Shown one piece after another: positions 1-12,484 of a DNA stretch of 13,212 nucleotides (within the stretch, counting starts at the first letter, position 1; the number at the start of each line of letters is the position of its first letter). Source of the DNA: a virus; UHGV virus genome UHGV-0125291. One strand, 5' to 3'. The notes beneath the pieces were generated by a model. That model ran no database searches and was not told the origin of the DNA. It saw nothing but the letters and a program-made list of their open reading frames with translations. The position numbers and the translations under genes are program-made.

Positions 1-1
1 T

Positions 2-541
2 GAGCGTCGAAATAAGGGGCGGTCCAGGCCAAAAACCAAAAAGGATCCATTCTTATCGCTTGCGCCGGTAAAAGAAATTTCTCCACATGCGAAGGCACTT
101 GCAGCACTGGCAAAGAACCCAGACCTGCGCGACGGAAATTGCGAGCACTTCGAGCAGGTTTTCATTTTTGATTACTTCGAACGCAAGCACCCTGACATCT
201 ATGAGCTGTTGCATGCAACGCCTAACGGAGGGAAACGTTCAAAAGCAACCGCCGGGAAAATGAAGGCTGAAGGGCAGAAAAAAGGTTATCCGGACATGAG
301 TCTCGATAAAGCATGCGGTATTTATCACGGCATGCGAATTGAGCTTAAAGAACCAAATGGTAAAGCCCCGACGAAAGAGCAGATCGCCTGGATGCGCAGG
401 CTTAGAGAGGAAGGTTACTACGTCGTTCTTGCGTATGGTGCAGAACAAGCGATAACCGCCATCCTGGAATACATAAGCCTTAAAAAGGGTGAGGCTATTG
501 AGCATGTATTGAACGGCGACAAGTGGTTGTATGCTGCTTAA
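2..541 (+). CDS. VRR-NUC-like nuclease domain protein, 5' partial (frame open to the window edge)
   Basis: The reading frame is open from position 2 with no in-frame ATG upstream; the only in-window start is TTG at 209, which lacks a convincing SD. The C-terminal part (GYPDMSL...GMRIELKEPNGKAPTKEQIAWMRRLREEGYYVVLAYG) fits a PD-(D/E)xK / VRR-NUC pattern (PD...ELK). The family call is pattern recognition, not a search. Confidence 0.55.
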   Translation, partial: ERRNKGRSRPKTKKDPFLSLAPVKEISPHAKALAALAKNPDLRDGNCEHFEQVFIFDYFERKHPDIYELLHATPNGGKRSKATAGKMKAEGQKKGYPDMSLDKACGIYHGMRIELKEPNGKAPTKEQIAWMRRLREEGYYVVLAYGAEQAITAILEYISLKKGEAIEHVLNGDKWLYAA

Positions 542-607
542 AATAATAAATTAATTAGTGCATATGTGCTCTTTGATATAGCGCACATTAACATCGGGAG
601 AATAATC

Positions 608-763
608 GTGTCATTCAAGGCTAATTATGAATCGCTGGCATCGATCATGCCGCGTAATGAACAGGAAGCAGATGCTGTAGTGGACCCGGTAATCGCTGAA
701 ATGAATGCTCGCCTGGAGGCTGAATTTGCAGCTGAGAATGAACATACCACCCAGGGCGACTAG
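608..763 (+). CDS. small acidic hypothetical protein (about 51 aa)
   Basis: GTG at 608 lies 7 nt after GGGAG (595-599); the ORF track gives 566..763 from an upstream start without an RBS. The 3' end overlaps the next gene and contains its SD. Confidence 0.3.
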   Translation: MSFKANYESLASIMPRNEQEADAVVDPVIAEMNARLEAEFAAENEHTTQGD

Positions 764-1367
764 GACTGTTTTTTGTGTCGGTAGCGGTCCGTCACTCACT
801 CGTGAGGACTGTGCTGCTATAGAAAAAACTGGCTGTTCAATCATCGCGGTTAACAATTCCTGGCAGATGTTCGATGACATTTATGCCTTATACGCCGGTG
901 ATTTGTCATGGTGGAAGCAATACGGATCCACCATACCGGGAGGGAGATTCCGCAAAGTGACAGCCAACCTGGCGGCGGCGAAATCATTTTCGTTGGAGTA
1001 CAGGCGATATTGTGGACCGGCGGAAGGGGTAAATAGCGGCGCGCAGGCTATCAGTCTGGCTGCTGAATCAGGGGCTGAAGTAGTGGTATTAGTCGGCTAT
1101 GACTGTTCTCTGCAAAACGGCCTTCATTGGCATGGCGCGCGCCCTCAAGCACTACGGAATCCAACGCAGGTGTCTATTTCAAAATGGCAACAGCAGTTCC
1201 TGGATACCCGCAAAAAACACGCAGATTTACATATTTTGAATGCAAGTAGGAGCAGTGCAATTCAATGTTTCCCAAGAATAAATTTAGAGGCAGTGATCGC
1301 GTTATTATCGTCGGCAGTGGCCCAAGCGCCGCAAACTTTGTTGCGCCGCGCGGAGTGCCGATTATAG
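726..1367 (+). CDS. hypothetical protein with N-terminal GxGPS motif (VGSGPS...IIAVN...VLVGYD), paralog A
   Basis: ORF track 705..1367. The preferred start is TTG 726, 6 nt after GGAGG (715-719); ATG 705 and ATG 738 are alternatives. It shares motif order and spacing with the next gene. A possible DUF115/MptE-like Rossmann-fold assignment is weak. Confidence 0.6.
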   Translation: MQLRMNIPPRATRTVFCVGSGPSLTREDCAAIEKTGCSIIAVNNSWQMFDDIYALYAGDLSWWKQYGSTIPGGRFRKVTANLAAAKSFSLEYRRYCGPAEGVNSGAQAISLAAESGAEVVVLVGYDCSLQNGLHWHGARPQALRNPTQVSISKWQQQFLDTRKKHADLHILNASRSSAIQCFPRINLEAVIALLSSAVAQAPQTLLRRAECRL

Positions 1368-1891
1368 CGGTCAATGGGGCCATCGACTGGCTTAACCGCG
1401 CTTCTTATTTTTTCACCCTTGATCCATCGCCAGACAATATGCGGCGCGTTGGTCGTGGCCGCCGTCGCCGTGGTGTTTGTTATTGCATGGCGCTACCCGA
1501 TGTTAAAGAACGTGAGGTCAGAGACGGCGTTCTGTGCTTCCGTCGTGTGGCTGAGCGCGGCACGGAGCCAAAAAATACGAATTCTCCCGAGTGGTGGGCG
1601 TGGCGCTGGTCCGCACATTTCGGACTTTGCGAAGATGAGAATGAAATTGCCAGCGGCAATAGTGCATATGGTGCTCTGAACCTGGCTTTCCATATCGGAT
1701 TCAAACATGTAGCCCTGGTGGGCGTTGACGCTACGCAAGAACCACGCGTTCATTCCGGCGGCACGCCAAAAAATCTAAGTCACCTGCCTTTGTTATTCCA
1801 GTCTGCGCGTGAACAGATTGACGTTGTTTCATGCGGGAAAATGGGAGGTATTCCGCAGATGACTCTTAAAGAATGGCTGAAGAATACATGA
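1265..1891 (+). CDS. hypothetical protein with N-terminal GxGPS motif (IVGSGPS...IIAVN...LVGVD), paralog B
   Basis: ATG 1265 is preceded by AGGAG (1248-1252). It is the only in-frame start before the conserved motif, and it forces a 103-nt out-of-frame overlap with paralog A. The stop TGA 1889-1891 overlaps the ATG of the next gene. Confidence 0.65.
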
Positions 1892-2565
1892 TGGCACCAA
1901 CAATTTATCACCGTATCGACGGTACCAAATACAGGAATATCTGGGTTGTTGGTGATCTGCATGGTTGCTACACCAGACTGATGTCCGAACTCCATCGTGT
2001 GGATTTTGACCCTGCGCAGGATTTACTGATATCGGTCGGCGACCTTATCGATCGCGGCACCGAAAATGTTAAATGCTTGGAGCTATTGCAGATGCCATGG
2101 TTCAGAGCGGTTATGGGCAACCATGAGCGGCTGATGATTGATGCGTTAAGTCCTGATGGCAACGTGAATAATTGGCTAATGAATGGCGGTCAATGGTTCT
2201 TCATGCTGGACGCTGATCAGGAAATATTAGCCAGGGCGCTGGTGGAGTTGGTAAGACGACTGCCCTATATCATTGAGTTGAACACCGGGCAAGAAACTAT
2301 CGTTATAGCCCATGCCGACTATCCGGATAATGAATACCAATTCGGTAAGGAGGTGCCGCTTTTCAACGTTGTCTGGGCGCGCGAGCGTATCAGTGATTCG
2401 ATGGATGATATTGGTGGCGAAATTTCGGGCGCAGATCGTTTTATCTTTGGTCACACTCCGGTGAAAAGCCCGAAGACATTCTGGAATCAGCAGTATATCG
2501 ACACTGGTGCCGTATTTTGCGGAAACCTGACATTGATGAAAGTGAAAGGTGATGGTGCAGCATGA
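1888..2565 (+). CDS. Ser/Thr protein phosphatase, lambda PP (NinI / ORF221) family metallophosphatase
   Basis: Metallophosphatase motifs GDLHGC, GDLIDRG and GNHE are present, and the protein is collinear with lambda phosphatase as recalled. The start at ATG 1888 overlaps the upstream stop (ATGA); ATG 1873 and ATG 1891 are alternatives. P1 carries an equivalent gene (ppp) by memory, so the symbol is left blank. Confidence 0.9.
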
Positions 2566-3263
2566 AGATTGCTTTAGTTTTTCGCTCTGGTGGTGACTAT
2601 AACGCTTCCGATGTGCAGTGGCTGGTTAATCAACTGCCAAAAGGCTATGAAATTATTTGCCTGACAGACCTGAAGCGTTTACATGTACCTGGCGTCAAAG
2701 TTGTCCCATTGATCAACCAGTGGCAAAAGTGCCGTGGCTGGTGGGCGAAAATCGAGTTGTTCCGACCGGATATAACCGATGATCTGTTCTATCTGGATTT
2801 GGACACGGTTATTGCCGGTGATATACGCCCAATCCTTGAGAATCCACCAACCAGCTTCACCATGCTTAGGGATTTTTACCATCCACAATATCGTGGCAGC
2901 GGTGCCCTGTGGATACCAAATAGTGTAAAAGCGCATATCTGGAGTTCATTCTGGCAAGATCCGGAAGGTTGGATTTCTCGTTGTGTCACTACTGAGTGCT
3001 GGGGTGATCAGGGGTTCTTACGGAAGGTTATGGGCGATGATACACCAGCATTTCAGGATCTGTATCCAGGATGGTTTGTAAGTTACAAGGCCGATGTTGT
3101 GGAACCTGGTTCAAAATATGCGAGCGCGCGTTACTCCAGGGGGAATGGGGCATTACCAAAGGACTGCCGAATAATCTTTTTCCACGGCAAACCGCGACCT
3201 CGCGAAGTGTCAGAGGATTGGCTTCCCCTTATCAGCTCGTTTTTTGAGCGAGAATCAGAATAA
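2562..3263 (+). CDS. hypothetical protein with DxD motif ([12 protein letters not shown]), possible GT-A-like glycosyltransferase
   Basis: ATG 2562 overlaps the phosphatase stop (ATGA at 2562-2565), with AAGGTGA upstream. The N-terminal beta-alpha start ([12 protein letters not shown]) followed by DLD resembles nucleotide-sugar transferases. The function is inference only. Confidence 0.6.
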
Positions 3264-3264
3264 T

Positions 3265-3281
3265 ATTGCTCTAATAATTCC
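3265..3281 (+). promoter_or_regulatory. P1 C1-repressor operator-like site (ATTGCTCTAATAATTCC), overlapping a possible -35 (TTGCTC)
   Basis: 14 of 17 positions match the asymmetric P1 C1 operator consensus ATTGCTCTAATAAATTT (recalled from literature). It sits 2 nt after the stop of the upstream gene and is followed at a fixed 19-nt offset by ATTTTTAAAAC, as is the copy at 5406. Confidence 0.5.
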
Positions 3282-3289
3282 ATATTTTT

Positions 3290-3319
3290 AAAACGTGATG
3301 TACACTCATCACGTTTTTT
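3290..3319 (+). terminator. Rho-independent terminator
   Basis: An 11-bp stem AAAACGTGATG / CATCACGTTTT with a 6-nt loop (3301-3306) is followed by a T-run ending at 3319. Confidence 0.6.
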
Positions 3320-3330
3320 ATTAGAGCAAT
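3314..3330 (-). promoter_or_regulatory. second C1 operator-like site, inverted orientation
   Basis: The reverse complement of 3314-3330 is ATTGCTCTAATAAAAAA, a 14/17 match to the consensus. With the site at 3265-3281 it forms a 13-bp inverted repeat enclosing the terminator hairpin. Confidence 0.45.
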
Positions 3331-4899: not shown

Positions 4900-5406
4900 T
4901 TGAGTATTTTCAATAAACACGCACACCAGGAACGTCCGTACATCGTCATAGTAGATATTGATGGGACGATATCAGAGGCAACGGAAGACAGGCTGCATTT
5001 ACTTCCACCACCTGGCAAAGGTGCATTAACAGAGCACTGGAACGAGTTTAACCTTGCCTGTGACACTGATGCTCCCATCACTCCAGTTATTGATATGGTG
5101 CGCCAGTTGTCCGGCATTTACACCCTCTGGTTTGTAACCGGGCGCTGTGAGATCGCAAGGGATAAAACACGAGCCTGGTTGCGTAAGCACGTAACAAATG
5201 GGGCTGAGCCTTTGCTATCTATGCGTCCTGCCACCGATGACAGAAATGACGGCCCAGCAAAGATTGATCTCCTTAAGAAAATTGGTCTAAGCAAAATTGC
5301 GTTCGCGCTGGAAGATAAGATTGAAGTGGCGCGTGTTTTCAGGAGGCACGGCGTGCTTACGTTAATGGTCAGGGAGTATGAAAACGCGCTTCTCCATCAA
5401 CAATAA
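4900..5406 (+). CDS. HAD-superfamily phosphatase-like protein
   Basis: TTG start at 4900 is 4 nt after AGGAGG (4890-4895). HAD motif I DxDGT is present (VIVDIDGTI), with a downstream Thr (FVTGR), Lys and LEDK consistent with motifs II-IV. Confidence 0.75.
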   Translation: MSIFNKHAHQERPYIVIVDIDGTISEATEDRLHLLPPPGKGALTEHWNEFNLACDTDAPITPVIDMVRQLSGIYTLWFVTGRCEIARDKTRAWLRKHVTNGAEPLLSMRPATDDRNDGPAKIDLLKKIGLSKIAFALEDKIEVARVFRRHGVLTLMVREYENALLHQQ

Positions 5407-5422
5407 TTGCTCTAATAAATCA
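5406..5422 (+). promoter_or_regulatory. third C1 operator-like site (ATTGCTCTAATAAATCA), overlapping a possible -35
   Basis: 15 of 17 positions match the C1 operator consensus. It starts at the last base of the HAD gene stop codon and is followed at the same 19-nt offset by ATTTTTAAAAC (5425-5435). Confidence 0.5.
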
Positions 5423-5670: not shown

Positions 5671-8600
5671 CTATATTTTTCCGCCTACGCCTTTAAACTT
5701 CTCAATAAACGAGACGATTTTCTGGAAAACTGCCTGTTTTTTCGTTTTATATTGCGGATTTAAAGGACTGAGTCTGGGCAGTGTCTCGTTTAATTCCGTG
5801 CCATTTTCGGTGGCGTATTCGCGTTTTAAAGACGTGCGAATATAGCGTTTCGCCGCCTCTTCATTGAGATTTTCTTCTTTTATCAATGCTTCTGCTTCAC
5901 GTTGCTGTTCGCGTTGAGCAAACGTAAAGAATGCGTCAATGATGCTGGCTTTGTCCGGTAAATCATCCAGGTTCGTTTGCTGAATAAAATCGACCACCAG
6001 GCCCTCTTTAGCACGGTTCCCCAGGCTTGAACGAATTAAGCGTTTGACCTCTTCGATCATTTCGCCCTTGCCTTTATTTTGTCTGTTGTGTTCGAAAATC
6101 AGTCCAAGGATATAATCCAGGTTTATTTCCTGAGACTTCAGCAAATCGACCTCAAAAACTACGTCATCCCAGTCAGTGGTTGATTTCTCTTTTTTCTCAG
6201 CTTCTTTCTCACGGCGCTGCCAGTCGCGAATATCGTTATAGGCAGAACGATAATCCTGAATCTTGCGATCAGCAGGGAGACGAATTGTTTGCAATTCAGC
6301 GAACTTTTCATCATCCACATAATGTTCTGCTTTGAATTTTTCTACCGCAACAGGATCGCTAAGATCGATTTGTTGCAGGGCTTTCAGCGTGGCAAATTCA
6401 TCATAGTTTTGCAGGATGTTCTCGGCACGCAGGTATTCACCAAACAGTTTAACGAAGTCTTTCTTCTCTTTTTCACTTTCAATACTGGTAGGGTCAGGGA
6501 ACCGTTGTTCCAGTTCTGAAACTACTGTCATGAAGCCGCGTTTAGCTTCACCAGTGGCAGCATCAGTAAAGCCTTCCATATACTCTGCATAACTCTTTTC
6601 TAAAACCACATTTTTGGTGTTTTTGTCACCAAACAGCGTTATGGCATCAATAGTTGAGCGTTCCAGATCCCGGAAAGTGACGATATTACCGAAGGTTTTA
6701 GTTGCATCATAAATACGGTTGGTGCGGGAAAATGCCTGCATCAGGCCGTGAAAACGCAAGTTTTTATCGACGAATAGCGTGTTCAATGTTGGAGCATCGA
6801 AGCCGGTTAAAAACATCCCCACGACAATTAACAGATCGATATCCTGATTTTTAACCCGTTGGGCTAAATCGCGATAGTAGTTCTGAAAACCGTTACCGTC
6901 GGTGCTGAAGTTAGTTTTAAAATAGCTGTTATACTCACGAATTGCAGCGTCAAGAAACTCTTTAGCACTGCTGTCCATTGCGCTGGTATCAAAAGTTTCA
7001 TCGGAAATTTCACCAATGGCATTTTGTTCTTCATTGGCGGCAAAGGAGAAGATTGTCGCAACACGCAGCGGTTTATAGGTAGCCGATTTATTAGCTGCTT
7101 CCTCTTGTAACCGTTTAAACGTCGCATAATAGGCTTTCGCGGCATCCACGCTGCTCACTGCCAACATAGCATTAAAACCTTTTGAGCCAGGGAAGGTACG
7201 GTGAGTTTTCTGGCGGAAATTATTCAGAATATATTGCGTGATTTCCTGAATACGCATGGGATGAAGAAACGCCTGCTGATTTTCAGCCGCACTTAGTTTT
7301 TTCTCGTCAGTTTCTGTCTCTAAAGACTTAAACTGTGGCCGCACATCGTTGTAGTCCACCTTGAATTTGAGCACTTTTTCGTCACGAATCGCATCGGTAA
7401 TTACATACGAATGCAATTCACGACCAAATACGCTGGCGGTTGTTTCTGAGCCTAAGGCGTTTTCCGGGAAAATAGGGGTGCCGGTAAAACCAAACTGATA
7501 ATAGCGTTTGAATTTCTTCTTCAGGTTTTTCTGCGCTTCTCCAAACTGGCTGCGGTGGCATTCATCAAATATAAACACCACTTGCTGATTGTATACAGGC
7601 AGGTCGCTTTCTGCTTTCATCAGGTTATTGAGTTTCTGAATAGTAGTGACGATAATTTTGTTATCGTCCTTATCCAGATTTCGTTTAAGGCCTGCGGTAT
7701 TTTCCGAGCCGTTGACGCTGTCTGGCGAAAAACGCTGATATTCCTTCATGGTCTGGTAATCGAGGTCTTTCCTGTCGACCACAAAGAAGACTTTATCAAT
7801 AAAGTCCAGCTCTGTTGCCAGACGCGCGGCTTTAAAGCTGGTGAGGGTTTTACCAGAACCGGTAGTGTGCCAGATATACCCACCGCTTTCCGGTTTTGAC
7901 CAGTTCTTCGCTGTAAAGGAACTCTTAATTTTCCACAGAATGCGCTCGGTGGCGGCAATCTGGTACGGTCGCATCACCAGTAGCGTCTGACTACTGTCAA
8001 AAACGCTGTAGTTCACCAGAACATTCAGCAGAGTATGTTTCTGGAAAAAGGTAGCGGTAAAGTCTTTGAGGTCTTTAATCAGCGTGTTGTCTGATTTCGC
8101 CCAGTTCATGGTGAAGTCAAAACTGTTTTTATCGCGCTTTGTCGTGTTGGCAAAATAACGGGTATCGGTGCCGTTAGAAATGACAAACAGTTGCAGATAC
8201 TTAAACAGGGAATTTTCGCTGTTAAAACTCTCTTTACTGTAACGATGTATCTGGTTGAAAGCCTCACGAATCGCCACCCCGCGTTTTTTTAGTTCGATTT
8301 GCACCAGCGGTAAACCATTAACCAGGATCGTGACGTCATAACGGTTAGCATGAGAACCCGTCTGTTCAAACTGCTGGATAATCTGCACCTTATTGCGCAT
8401 GAGATTCTTTTTATCTATCAAATAGATGTTCTCAAGTCGCCCGTCGTCAAAAATAAAGTCGCAGATATAGTCGATATGGATTTTACGGGTCTTATCCAGA
8501 ATGCCATCGCTGGGGTTGTCCAGATACTGCTCCGTGAAGCGCCGCCACTCGCTGTCATTAAACATCACACCATTGAGGCTCTGAAGCTGTTCCCGAACAT

Positions 8601-8787
8601 TAGACAGCATTGCCGACTGTGATTTTACGGAAATAAATTCATAACCCTGATTCCGCAGGTCCTGAATCAGTTCACGTTCCAGGTCCGATTCGCTCTGGTA
8701 GCTGTCGCTTGTTTGCTCAGCTTTGATGTACTTATCAAGGACGATAAAGTTATTGGATTCAGCAATGGTGTGTGTTTGATGAGTCAT
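5671..8787 (-). CDS. hsdR: Type I restriction enzyme R subunit (HsdR), EcoR124 (Type IC) family
   Basis: 1038 aa. Walker A ([11 protein letters not shown]) and a DEAD-box-like motif (FDECH) are present. The N-terminus [24 protein letters not shown] matches EcoR124I HsdR as recalled. RBS AAGGA lies 5 nt before the ATG. Confidence 0.95.
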
Positions 8788-8908
8788 AGCGCATCCTTTG
8801 TGCCGCCTGGCAAGGGCCGGAAAGGCGTTAAGAGTGACTTCCGGCGCGTAAAAAATAGTCTATATACTGACCGGATGTTAAGGAGGCCCGGTCGGTAGCA
8901 ATGGTCAA

Positions 8909-10143
<1,235 letters not shown>

Positions 10144-10147
<4 letters not shown>

Positions 10148-11706
10148 GATTGCGCCTCGTCACCTTCAATCTTTGCCACAATTGCATCAATATCTTTACG
10201 CAACTGGTCGATTTTGCTGACCGTGGTTTTCAGCTCAGCATTCAGCTCACCGATATCGATAATTTCGCGGTTATCTTTCGCTTCCACATAGCTGCTCACC
10301 GACAGGTTATAGTCATTCGCGACAACAGTCTCAAACGTGACAGATTTTGCCAGATGAGCAACATCTTCCTTGCTGGCAAATACCTGCATAATCTGTTCGA
10401 TATGGGCATCGGTCAGGATATTGTTGTTGGTCTCTTTTTTGAACAGTTCGCTGGCGTCAATAAACTGAACGTTGGTATCCGTTTTATGTTTAGACAGAAC
10501 CAGAATGTTTACGGCAATGGTGGTGCCAAAGAACAGGTTCGGTGCCAGTGAAATCACGGTTTCGACATAGTTATTGTCGACCAGATACTGACGGATTTTC
10601 TGCTCCGCGCCGCCACGGTAAAAAATACCCGGGAAGCAGACAATCGCAGCACGACCTTTGGCCGAAAGATAGTTCAGCGCATGTAATACAAACGCAAAGT
10701 CAGCTTTGGATTTGGGGGCCAGAACGCCAGCCGGGGCAAAACGCTCATCGTTAATCAGCGTCGGGTCATCGCTGCCAATCCATTTCACCGAATACGGCGG
10801 GTTAGAAACGATGGCATCAAACGGTTTTTCATCTCTGAAGTGCGGCTCAGTCAGCGTATTGCCCAGCTTGATATCAAACTTGTCGTAGTTGATGTTGTGC
10901 AAAAACATGTTCATACGCGCCAGGTTATAGGTCGTATGGTTGATTTCCTGACCAAAAAAACCTTCTTCGATGATATGGTTATCAAACTGTTTTTTCGCCT
11001 GCAACAACAGTGAGCCGGAACCCGCTGCCGGGTCGTAGATTTTGTTAACGCTGGTCTGCCCGTGCATAGCCAGTTGTGCAATCAGCTTGGAGACGTGCTG
11101 CGGTGTAAAGAACTCGCCGCCTGACTTACCAGCATTCGCCGCATAGTTAGAAATCAGGAACTCATAGGCATCACCGAACAGGTCAATCTGATGTTCGTTG
11201 AAGTCACCAAGTTTTAACCCTTCAACCCCTTTCAGAACCGCAGCCAGGCGGGCATTTTTATCTTTAACGGTGTTACCCAGGCGGTTACTGGTGGTATCGA
11301 AATCAGCAAACAAACCTTTGATGTCAGCTTCTGAAGGGTAACCGTAAGCAGAACTTTCGATAGCAACGAAGATGCTGTTTAAATCTGCATTCAGTCTGTC
11401 ATTGGTATTTGCTTTCGCAGCTACGTTGCAGAAAAGCTGACTGGGGTAGATGAAGTAGCCTTTAGTTTTGATGGCATCGTCTTTAATGTCATCAGTAATT
11501 ACGCTGTCATCCAGTTTCGCATAACAGATACTGTCATCACCGGCTTCAATATAACTGGAAAAATTTTCGCTGATAAAACGGTAGAAAAGCGCGCCCAGAA
11601 CGTATTGCTTAAAATCCCATCCATCGACCGAACCCCTGACATCGTTAGCAATTTGCCAGATTTGACGATGAAGCTCTGCACGTTGTTGAATACTTGTCAT
11701 TTTCAT
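10144..11706 (-). CDS. hsdM: Type I R-M DNA methyltransferase subunit (HsdM), N6-adenine
   Basis: 520 aa. The AdoMet motif ([10 protein letters not shown]) and the catalytic NPPY motif (SNPPYS) are present. A second Met 2 codons in (ATG 11698-11700) is an alternative start. Confidence 0.95.
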
Positions 11707-11882: not shown

Positions 11883-12104
11883 GTGCAATCCATTAACTTC
11901 CGTACCGCGCGTGGCAACCTTTCTGAAGTGCTCAACAATGTTGAAGCCGGGGAAGAGGTTGAAATCACCCGCAGAGGCCGTGAGCCAGCAGTAATTGTCA
12001 GCAAGGCTACTTTCGAAGCCTACAAAAAAGCGGCGCTGGATGCTGAATTTGCATCCCTGTTTGACACCCTGGACTCCACCAACAAGGAACTGGTTAACCG
12101 ATAA
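11883..12104 (+). CDS. phd: Phd antitoxin (prevent-host-death), P1 type
   Basis: A GTG start at 11883 gives [73 protein letters not shown], 73 aa, matching P1 Phd as recalled. The ORF track starts 2 codons upstream at 11877. The stop TAA overlaps the doc ATG (TAATG). Confidence 0.9.
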
Positions 12105-12484
12105 TGAGGCATATATCACCGGAAGAACTTATTGCGCTTCATGATGCGAATATAAGCCGCTACGGCGGCCTGCCGGGAATGTCAGATCCGGGTAGGGCAG
12201 AGGCCATTATCGGGAGAGTTCAGGCCAGAGTTGCCTACGAAGAGATCACCGACCTTTTCGAAGTCTCCGCCACCTACCTGGTGGCTACAGCGAGAGGGCA
12301 TATATTCAATGATGCCAATAAGCGTACCGCGCTAAACAGTGCGCTGTTATTTCTACGCCGTAACGGGGTGCAGGTATTTGATTCACCTGAACTGGCAGAC
12401 CTTACCGTAGGGGCTGCGACCGGAGAGATATCTGTATCTTCTGTCGCCGACACGTTACGTAGATTGTATGGTTCTGCGGAGTAG
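12104..12484 (+). CDS. doc: Doc toxin (death-on-curing), Fic-fold kinase
   Basis: 126 aa with the Fic/Doc motif HIFNDANKR. It is translationally coupled to phd and the sequence matches P1 Doc as recalled. Confidence 0.9.

Follow-up and report, generated by a model that had tools for sequence, protein, structure and literature searches.

The 13,212-nt DNA of the virus genome UHGV-0125291, referred to below as the window, carries two adjacent genes that share a series of short motifs and overlap out of frame by 103 nt, which raises the question of what the two products do and why one stretch of DNA should be read in two frames. The open reading frames (ORFs) at 705..1367 (220 aa) and 1265..1891 (208 aa) both lie on the plus strand, in differing frames, and both encode the elements VGSGPS, IIAVN, NSG..Gx(Y/V)D and a His, as had been pointed out in the original prediction, which was made from the letters of this DNA. 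We identify them as the P1 genes pmgO and pmgP, diverged paralogs with the predicted fold of Maf glycosyltransferases. The reading we favor, at a probability of roughly 0.55, is that PmgO and PmgP are paired Maf-like sugar transferases belonging to a glycosylation module of the lytic phase, and that their overlap is a conserved form of gene packing.

The pair has been annotated before, and its appearance here is a rediscovery. Megablast returned 19 full-length matches to window positions 560-3300 at 97.6-98.3% identity, to P1, P7, RCS47, phi456, SJ46 and their relatives. The genes of the P1 record AF234172 that match the region are pmgN, pmgO, pmgP, ppp and pmgQ; there pmgO occupies 79592..80254 and pmgP 80152..80778, with the 103-nt overlap already in place. 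P7 carries the identical overlap under the names hdmB and hdmC. The only label GenBank gives to pmgO and pmgP is 'putative morphogenetic function', and we found no function assigned to either gene in the literature, where they appear in essentiality and expression tables only. The start of pmgO is better placed at TTG 726, as originally predicted, than at the GenBank start ATG 705, because a GGAGG sequence (715-719) stands six nt upstream of it; residues of PmgO are nevertheless numbered from ATG 705 throughout. The operon at 608-3263 is packed by overlaps along its length: pmgN and pmgO share 38 nt (726-763), pmgO and pmgP 103 nt, pmgP and ppp 19 nt (1873-1891), and ppp and pmgQ 4 nt (2562-2565).

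The similarity of the two products is weak in a direct comparison and unambiguous between families. BLASTP aligns PmgO with PmgP across the N-terminal 36 aa alone (E 0.003), whereas hhalign matches the profile of 21 pmgO-type homologues to that of 23 pmgP-type homologues over 165 columns, nearly the whole length, with a probability of 97.2% and E 3.9e-11. PHROG and hidden Markov model (HMM) searches add weak cross-matches in both directions. The two genes are true, diverged paralogs, and the duplication proposed from the motifs alone is borne out by the profile alignment. The family is a large one: a cut-off of E <= 1e-3 gives it 2,133 cluster representatives. PmgP differs from PmgO by an Arg/Trp-rich insertion, which measures about 36 aa in the profile alignment and not the 60 or so first estimated. 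The AlphaFold2 model of PmgP renders it as a beta-hairpin (strands 84-95) followed by a Trp-rich helix (108-114), and residues W110, W111, W113, R114 and W115 are nearly invariant among 92 homologues.

Placement of the family depends largely on structure. The Pfam model PF01973 (MptE-like/DUF115) gives partial, C-terminal matches of 23.3 bits to PmgO and 20.9 bits to PmgP, both under its cut-off of 34.6; the homologue P0051 clears the cut-off with 44.6 bits, and several homologue matches carry a precomputed PF01973 label. Because the window proteins are sub-threshold while their homologues pass, the family is a divergent branch of the PF01973 superfamily. The AlphaFold2 models are confident, with a predicted local distance difference test score (pLDDT) of 85 for PmgO and 95 for PmgP. 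In the fold search both models matched Maf best, followed by archaeal MptE and the Cst-I sialyltransferase, with SteA and thiamine pyrophosphokinases (TPK) at lower ranks; the fold is shared with the solved PF01973 members Maf (5mu5) and MptE (8sd5). The modeled fold corresponds to the modified GT-A fold that GT42 sialyltransferases share with the Maf flagellin glycosyltransferases. With these structural matches, and with P0051 passing where the window proteins stay sub-threshold, the earlier guess of a DUF115/MptE-like Rossmann fold proves right at the level of the fold, even though the family had not been placed with confidence and the annotated P1 genes had gone unrecognized. A search of Protein Data Bank sequences with both family profiles and P0051 returned nothing meaningful, and the fold search alone provided the link to known structures; a viral structure library yielded matches to uncharacterized MptE-like proteins alone. 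A literature mention of 'DUF115' in a BREX paper proved to be a prefix match to DUF1156.

The closest relative, Maf, has PF01973 as the central domain of a protein of about 600 aa with N- and C-terminal flagellin-binding domains. PmgO (213 aa) and PmgP (208 aa) are bare proteins of about 210 aa that align with this central domain alone, over 159-163 residues of the 632 in 5mu5, and, unlike Maf, they are carried by phages as two paralogs. The linkage of Maf to flagellin or nonulosonic-acid synthesis genes does not extend to the pmgO/pmgP loci: no flagellar or Neu/Pse/Leg genes are found among the annotated neighbors in more than 12 loci. Maf enzymes require two acidic residues and a Ser, which in CbMaf are D272, S334 and D357 (bioRxiv 10.1101/2020.06.03.131540). 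Invariant candidates for the same roles are D66, S111 and D133 in PmgO and D53, S133 and D155 in PmgP, with a Ser-to-Asp spacing of 22 in both proteins against 23 in CbMaf. The GT42 enzymes Cst-I and Cst-II (2p56, 1ro7) share the fold at 12-16% identity to PmgO and PmgP, and Pfam CST-I found no match in a scan of the window proteins. PHROGs assign pmgO to phrog_4603, 'alpha-2,3-sialyltransferase', and pmgP to phrog_2111, labeled as of unknown function. E. coli K-12 is not known to make CMP-sialic acid (CMP, cytidine monophosphate), and the sialyltransferase label should therefore not be taken literally.

Genomic context points toward glycan synthesis. In HMM scans covering 21 loci, pmgP-type and pmgQ-type genes are nearly always neighbors, and a pmgO-type gene lies alongside in about two-thirds of cases. 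Prophages with all three genes come from Enterobacteriaceae and Zhongshania (Gammaproteobacteria), Commensalibacter and Brevundimonas (Alphaproteobacteria) and Sinomicrobium (Bacteroidota); a Longimicrobiales metagenome-assembled genome is a further host of the module, and every named host bears lipopolysaccharide (LPS). PmgQ has an invariant D79-x-D81, and its family profile finds the Skp1 alpha-galactosyltransferase 6mw5 at E 7.5e-6 and gives weaker matches to glycogenins; with the DxD motif and this similarity it qualifies as GT8-like, its Pfam GT8 match being marginal (E 0.31). An S-adenosylmethionine (SAM) methyltransferase gene lies inside or beside the module in four loci (L095, L100, L101, L102) and an extra GT-A-like gene in two (L096, L103); ppp separates the pmgP and pmgQ genes in P1-like phages only. 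Gene fusions repeat these associations. P0051 joins PmgO-type and PmgP-type proteins in frame and keeps the internal Shine-Dalgarno sequence and ATG, P0228 and P0312 join PmgP-type and PmgQ-type proteins, P0177 joins a methyltransferase to a PmgP-type protein, P0212 carries a PmgO-type domain with what by eye is a methyltransferase-like tail, and P0282 and P0284 are tandem PmgO-type domain proteins. PADLOC defense models gave no matches to PmgO, PmgP, Ppp or PmgQ.

The same fold also serves MptE and TPK, whose chemistry is ATP pyrophosphoryl transfer, and PmgO and PmgP could accordingly be pyrophosphokinases of a small molecule, such as thiamine, a pterin or something nucleotide-like, and not glycosyltransferases. 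We consider this improbable. Maf gives the best and longest structural match, against 127-136 aligned residues for MptE, and no pterin-pathway neighbors were seen in any pmgO/pmgP locus. The annotated neighbors in more than 12 loci are instead phage structural, lysis, terminase, glycosyltransferase and methyltransferase genes; folate, thiamine and nucleotide-salvage partners do not recur, and L101, with a ribonucleotide reductase and a MazG-like gene, is the sole locus with nucleotide-metabolism neighbors. Glycan synthesis is favored over pyrophosphokinase chemistry because the genes are tightly linked, and in some cases fused, to GT8-like, other GT-A-like and sugar-type methyltransferase partners. 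DNA glycosylation was set aside, nucleotide-metabolism neighbors being confined to that one locus; P1 DNA, too, is not known to carry hypermodification.

The module is always found in phage DNA, usually in late operons, among structural or lysis genes (Table 1). In P1, the GenBank annotation places a C1 repressor operator (Oppp) upstream of the operon and the operon itself downstream of a late promoter, which suggests lytic rather than lysogenic expression. The Oppp position in the window has four mismatches to the operator consensus by eye, and a scan allowing three mismatches missed it.

Taken together with the fold, we infer that PmgO and PmgP would both be active sugar transferases working together, probably as a hetero-oligomer, with the GT8-like PmgQ as a partner and, in other phages, a SAM methyltransferase as well. 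During lytic growth such a module would assemble a small glycan out of activated sugars supplied by the host. No sugar-nucleotide synthesis genes were seen near the module, so the donors would have to come from host metabolism. The obvious CMP-linked donor in Gram-negative hosts would be CMP-Kdo (Kdo, 3-deoxy-D-manno-oct-2-ulosonic acid), apparently the sole CMP-sugar made by every module host; endogenous E. coli CMP-Kdo can be used by Maf enzymes as a Kdo source (bioRxiv 10.1101/2020.06.03.131540). The acceptor is more likely to be a phage or virion protein than the LPS core, because the module lies in structural operons and appears to be expressed lytically, because the closest structural relative, Maf, glycosylates protein, and because the nearest solved relatives of PmgQ act on protein-linked glycans. 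Mycobacteriophage virions are glycosylated by cytoplasmic glycosyltransferases whose genes stand beside the capsid gene in late operons and are not needed for growth. The O-P-(methyltransferase)-Q modules of L095, L097 and L104 resemble these genes in genomic position; the mycobacteriophage systems involve other glycosyltransferase families and hosts. A still more specific version, in which the module, with or without the methyltransferase, decorates virion proteins of Gram-negative phages with a short glycan that includes Kdo or another ulosonic acid drawn from host CMP-Kdo, and PmgO and PmgP form a heterodimer, is quite doubtful. If true, it would be the first such protein glycosylation system in a classical coliphage and an unrecognized modification of the P1 particle.

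The chief alternative keeps the enzymes and changes the acceptor. As a WaaZ-plus-GT8-like set, the module could modify the LPS core of the host, or some other envelope glycan linked to lipid, mask the P1 receptor and so limit superinfection or the loss of progeny on cell debris; we regard this as possible, though unlikely. WaaZ, the KdoIII transferase (TIGR04437/PF27901), uses CMP-Kdo, and it shows a weak likeness to the family at the N-terminal GxGPS region (TIGR04437: E 2.9e-4 for P0051, 0.11 for PmgP), with a plausible motif register in hhalign. The LPS core glucosyltransferases belong to GT8, the module is seen in LPS-bearing phyla only, its site after the lysis genes in lambdoid prophages is moron-like, and the Arg/Trp-rich insertion could anchor PmgP at the membrane interface. 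Membership in the WaaZ family nevertheless fails: PmgP and P0051 score 11.8 and 20.3 bits against a cut-off of 200, over the N-terminal 50 or so residues only, and hhalign of the two family profiles against E. coli K-12 WaaZ gives probabilities of 7% and 16%. The annotated C1 operator implies expression in the lytic and not the lysogenic state, several prophages hold the module inside head or tail operons, and PmgQ resembles enzymes of protein-linked glycans.

Several observations count against the sugar-transferase reading as a whole. CRISPR interference and knock-outs found pmgO, pmgP and pmgQ, together with ppp, to be non-essential for plaque formation (PMC10695390), and the searched text of the P1 virion proteome paper makes no mention of virion glycosylation (PMC9024508). 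Both window proteins fall short of the PF01973 cut-off, and the modeled fold is one that also houses pyrophosphokinases. The proposed match of catalytic residues is one of motif spacing, not of structural superposition. A pmgO-type gene is not obligatory, since pmgP-pmgQ pairs occur without it in L097, L099 and L104, and the PmgO-PmgP fusion P0051 is known from one metagenomic contig.

A different kind of candidate partner appears in Serratia plymuthica, where a pmgO-type gene is followed by two genes with Big_1 Ig-like domains (L004, 8001-10442); P0235 fuses a pmgO-type domain to Big_1/Big_13 domains. PmgO-type enzymes may act on such Ig-like proteins or together with them.

Why the two genes overlap can be read from their relatives. 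ATG 1265 is the sole ATG, GTG or TTG in the pmgP frame upstream of the VGSGPS motif, in keeping with the claim that it is the only usable start, and 1265-1367 is open in both frames. We aligned the overlap DNA of five enterobacterial lineages: P1, a P1-like plasmid from Salmonella (L108), Pantoea (L087), a lambdoid prophage of Citrobacter rodentium (L003) and Chimaeribacter (L088). In the Salmonella, Pantoea and C. rodentium lineages, the three whose PmgO product was aligned, this protein is 37-68% identical to that of P1. In all five the pmgP ATG holds a constant position within pmgO codons for (Gln/Lys/Thr)-Cys-Phe, formed by the final base of the first codon and the TG of the conserved Cys codon ('A ATG yTT'), and the Phe that follows is nearly invariant. 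The Shine-Dalgarno sequence of pmgP lies within invariant pmgO codons (Table 1), and a purine-rich motif is retained at its site in L108, L087 and L088. Nucleotide identity to four relatives is somewhat higher across the overlap, at 0.62-0.77, than in upstream pmgO, at about 0.5-0.6.

The stop of pmgO, by contrast, drifts from lineage to lineage (Table 1). Where the two genes are adjacent, pmgO never stops before the pmgP start, and the overlaps range from 7 to 103 nt; in distant phages with adjacent genes (L095, L096, L100) they are merely 7-13 nt, and in L004, L089-L093 and L101 the genes are not adjacent. P1 pmgO carries an extension past the stops of its relatives: P1 encodes Ala-Ala-Asn at the Ala-Met-Asn site of L108, which leaves it without the TGA that closes the L108 gene, and for this reason P1 pmgO runs on to an overlap of 103 nt. 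Past residue 203 or so PmgO shows no conservation, and the tail is modeled with low confidence (pLDDT 57-77). The original claim of dual coding over 1265-1367 is supported, with the qualification that the dual coding is conserved only for roughly the first 40 nt; this core spans the terminal helix of PmgO and the leader of PmgP, which is loosely constrained (pLDDT 63), and the remaining 60 nt or so of P1 pmgO are a non-conserved tail that merely shadows the pmgP GSGPS codons. The overlap is a conserved packing arrangement with a fixed pmgP start and a drifting pmgO stop, and both genes are intact, with an overlap of 103 nt, in 82/82 P1-like loci, which are near-identical P1 copies from viral contigs, the diverse loci having come from a genome scan. 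Translation of pmgP would begin at its own ribosome-binding site within the pmgO Ser-Arg codons, some 40 nt would encode both the last helix of PmgO and the PmgP leader, and the P1 tail, for want of an earlier stop, would be functionless. The locus offers a clean, small example of a start fixed in the conserved codons of a neighbor whose own stop moves.

Might the overlap instead serve programmed -1 frameshifting? The X_XXY_YYZ heptamer A_AAT_TTA stands inside it at 1280-1286, slippage by -1 at this point leads into the pmgP frame, a natural in-frame fusion exists in P0051, and L087 carries T_TTA_AAC nearby. The heptamer is, however, absent from 4/7 loci with adjacent genes (L003, L088, L096, L100), 0.13-0.20 such heptamers are expected by chance per 34 codons, and the downstream RNA folds no better than shuffled sequence (z = -0.24). 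The product would lose the conserved terminal helix of PmgO, which P0051 retains, and pmgP has a Shine-Dalgarno sequence and ATG of its own. We rejected the site as unconserved, within chance expectation and devoid of downstream structure, and consider frameshifting very improbable.

To the suggestion that the long overlap is an annotation artefact, with PmgP starting later (e.g. at GTG 1355) or PmgO decaying, we give almost no credence, despite a degree of disorder in public gene calls. PmgP is often called from GTG 1355 as a 178-aa protein beginning MPIIAVNG (P0054, 373 member sequences), and as a 176-aa form in C. rodentium (P0162); PmgO is sometimes called from an internal Met at ATG 867 (166 aa), is uncalled in L107 and has a frameshifted variant, P0002. 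The truncated PmgP, however, lacks strand beta-1 and the nearly invariant GSGPS loop, which is present in all full-length homologues and modeled with a pLDDT of 97; the pmgP ATG and Shine-Dalgarno sequence are conserved in the five lineages; and pmgO is intact throughout the P1-like loci, its last helix conserved. The short database forms P0054, P0162 and P0003 are gene-calling artefacts due to the overlaps, as the absence of conserved core elements indicates. Overlap-averse gene callers systematically shorten one of the two genes or leave it out; in the P0054 cluster of 373 sequences, for instance, PmgP is without its nucleotide-binding loop. The variant P0002 (48 member sequences) reads as one extra A in the A6 run at 1212-1217 of pmgO, truncating the protein at TAG 1247-1249, just upstream of the pmgP Shine-Dalgarno sequence; either the frameshift is genuine or the homopolymer was misread in sequencing.

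P1 serves E. coli genetics as a standard tool, and what is new here for pmgO and pmgP is their paralogy, their Maf/sialyltransferase-like predicted fold, the conserved start-in-codon architecture and the O-P-Q(-methyltransferase) module across phages of several phyla, along with a concrete hypothesis, the glycosylation of virion proteins or LPS. No major concept is altered, and in the laboratory P1 can do without the genes.

Table 1. Features of the pmgO-pmgP region in window coordinates, overlap lengths in five lineages, and location of the module in other loci.
Feature	Position or length	Strand	Remarks
C1 repressor operator Oppp, upstream of operon	548..564	-	homologous position in AF234172
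pmgN, small upstream gene	608..763	+	P1 annotation mapped onto window; ORF list
GGAGG Shine-Dalgarno of pmgO	715..719	+	6 nt 5' of TTG 726; sequence reading
pmgO (paralog A), 213 aa from TTG 726	726..1367	+	220 aa from GenBank start ATG 705
pmgO VGSGPS loop (V25-S30)	777..794	+	after strand beta-1; G28, P29, S30 nearly invariant in 42 homologues
pmgO NSG...helix...GYD segment (N110-D133)	1032..1103	+	S111, G112, G131, D133 invariant; PF01973-matching stretch
pmgO HWHG motif (H141-G144)	1125..1136	+	H141 and H143 invariant
AGGAG Shine-Dalgarno of pmgP	1248..1252	+	12 nt 5' of ATG; inside pmgO invariant Ser181-Arg182 codons (AGT AGG AGC)
pmgP (paralog B), 208 aa	1265..1891	+	
Conserved overlap core	1265..1304	+	pmgO C-terminus and pmgP N-terminal leader; constant ATG in five lineages
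A_AAT_TTA heptamer, pmgO frame	1280..1286	+	-1 slip enters pmgP frame; judged a chance occurrence
P1-specific overlap extension	1305..1367	+	pmgO tail / pmgP beta-1-GSGPS-beta-2; relatives stop earlier
pmgP VGSGPS loop (V16-S21)	1310..1327	+	V16, P20 invariant, S18, G19, S21 nearly so, in 92 homologues
pmgP-specific insertion, ~36 aa (residues ~82-117)	1508..1615	+	gap in hhalign alignment
pmgP NSA...helix...GVD segment (N132-D155)	1658..1729	+	G131, N132, S133, G153, D155 invariant; PF01973 match
ppp, lambda-type Ser/Thr phosphatase	1873..2565	+	PF00149 E 8e-16; phrog_246
pmgQ, GT8/glycogenin-like glycosyltransferase	2562..3263	+	DLD motif 2796-2804; phrog_1962 'glycosyltransferase'
Overlap, L088	40 nt		shortest among five lineages
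Overlap, L087	49 nt		
Overlap, L108	70 nt		pmgO stop is TGA within pmgP Ala-Met-Asn codons
Overlap, L003	94 nt		
Overlap, P1	103 nt		pmgO stop is TAG within pmgP Ile-Ile-Ala codons
Module, L095			between major capsid and head-tail connector genes
Module, L104 / L105			between connector and head-closure genes
Module, L097			5' of a connector gene
Module, L096			after large terminase
Module, L100			before tail tube gene
Module, L003, L099, L103			adjoins lysis cassette

Other parts of the window set it apart from P1 proper. A complete type I restriction-modification system (5671-11706 on the minus strand, and 12104-12484), encoding HsdR (1038 aa), HsdS (412 aa) and HsdM (520 aa) and adjoined by the doc toxin gene, stands in for the region that P1 carries there, in the same layout as in phi456 and vB_EcoM-673R5. 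With this cargo, the window is a P1-like phage-plasmid and not P1 itself. The C-terminal part of PmgM (window 1-541, ORF listed as 209..541 and truncated by the left edge of the window) matches VRR-NUC (PF08774) just under the Pfam cut-off; the protein, labeled 'putative morphogenetic', also matches a PHROG family annotated as Holliday-junction resolvase, and would seem to process DNA and not to be a structural protein. The ORF 4900-5406, which stands where P1 has pap ('acid phosphatase'), is matched by PF25109, the HAD phosphatase domain found in polynucleotide kinase-phosphatase (E 2e-11). Three matches to the C1 operator consensus occur, against 0.08 expected by chance. Those at 3265-3281 (+) and 3314-3330 (-) correspond to the annotated operators OpmgRa and OpmgRb, and the one at 5406-5422 (+) directly follows the pap-like gene, where the restriction-modification cargo meets its surroundings.

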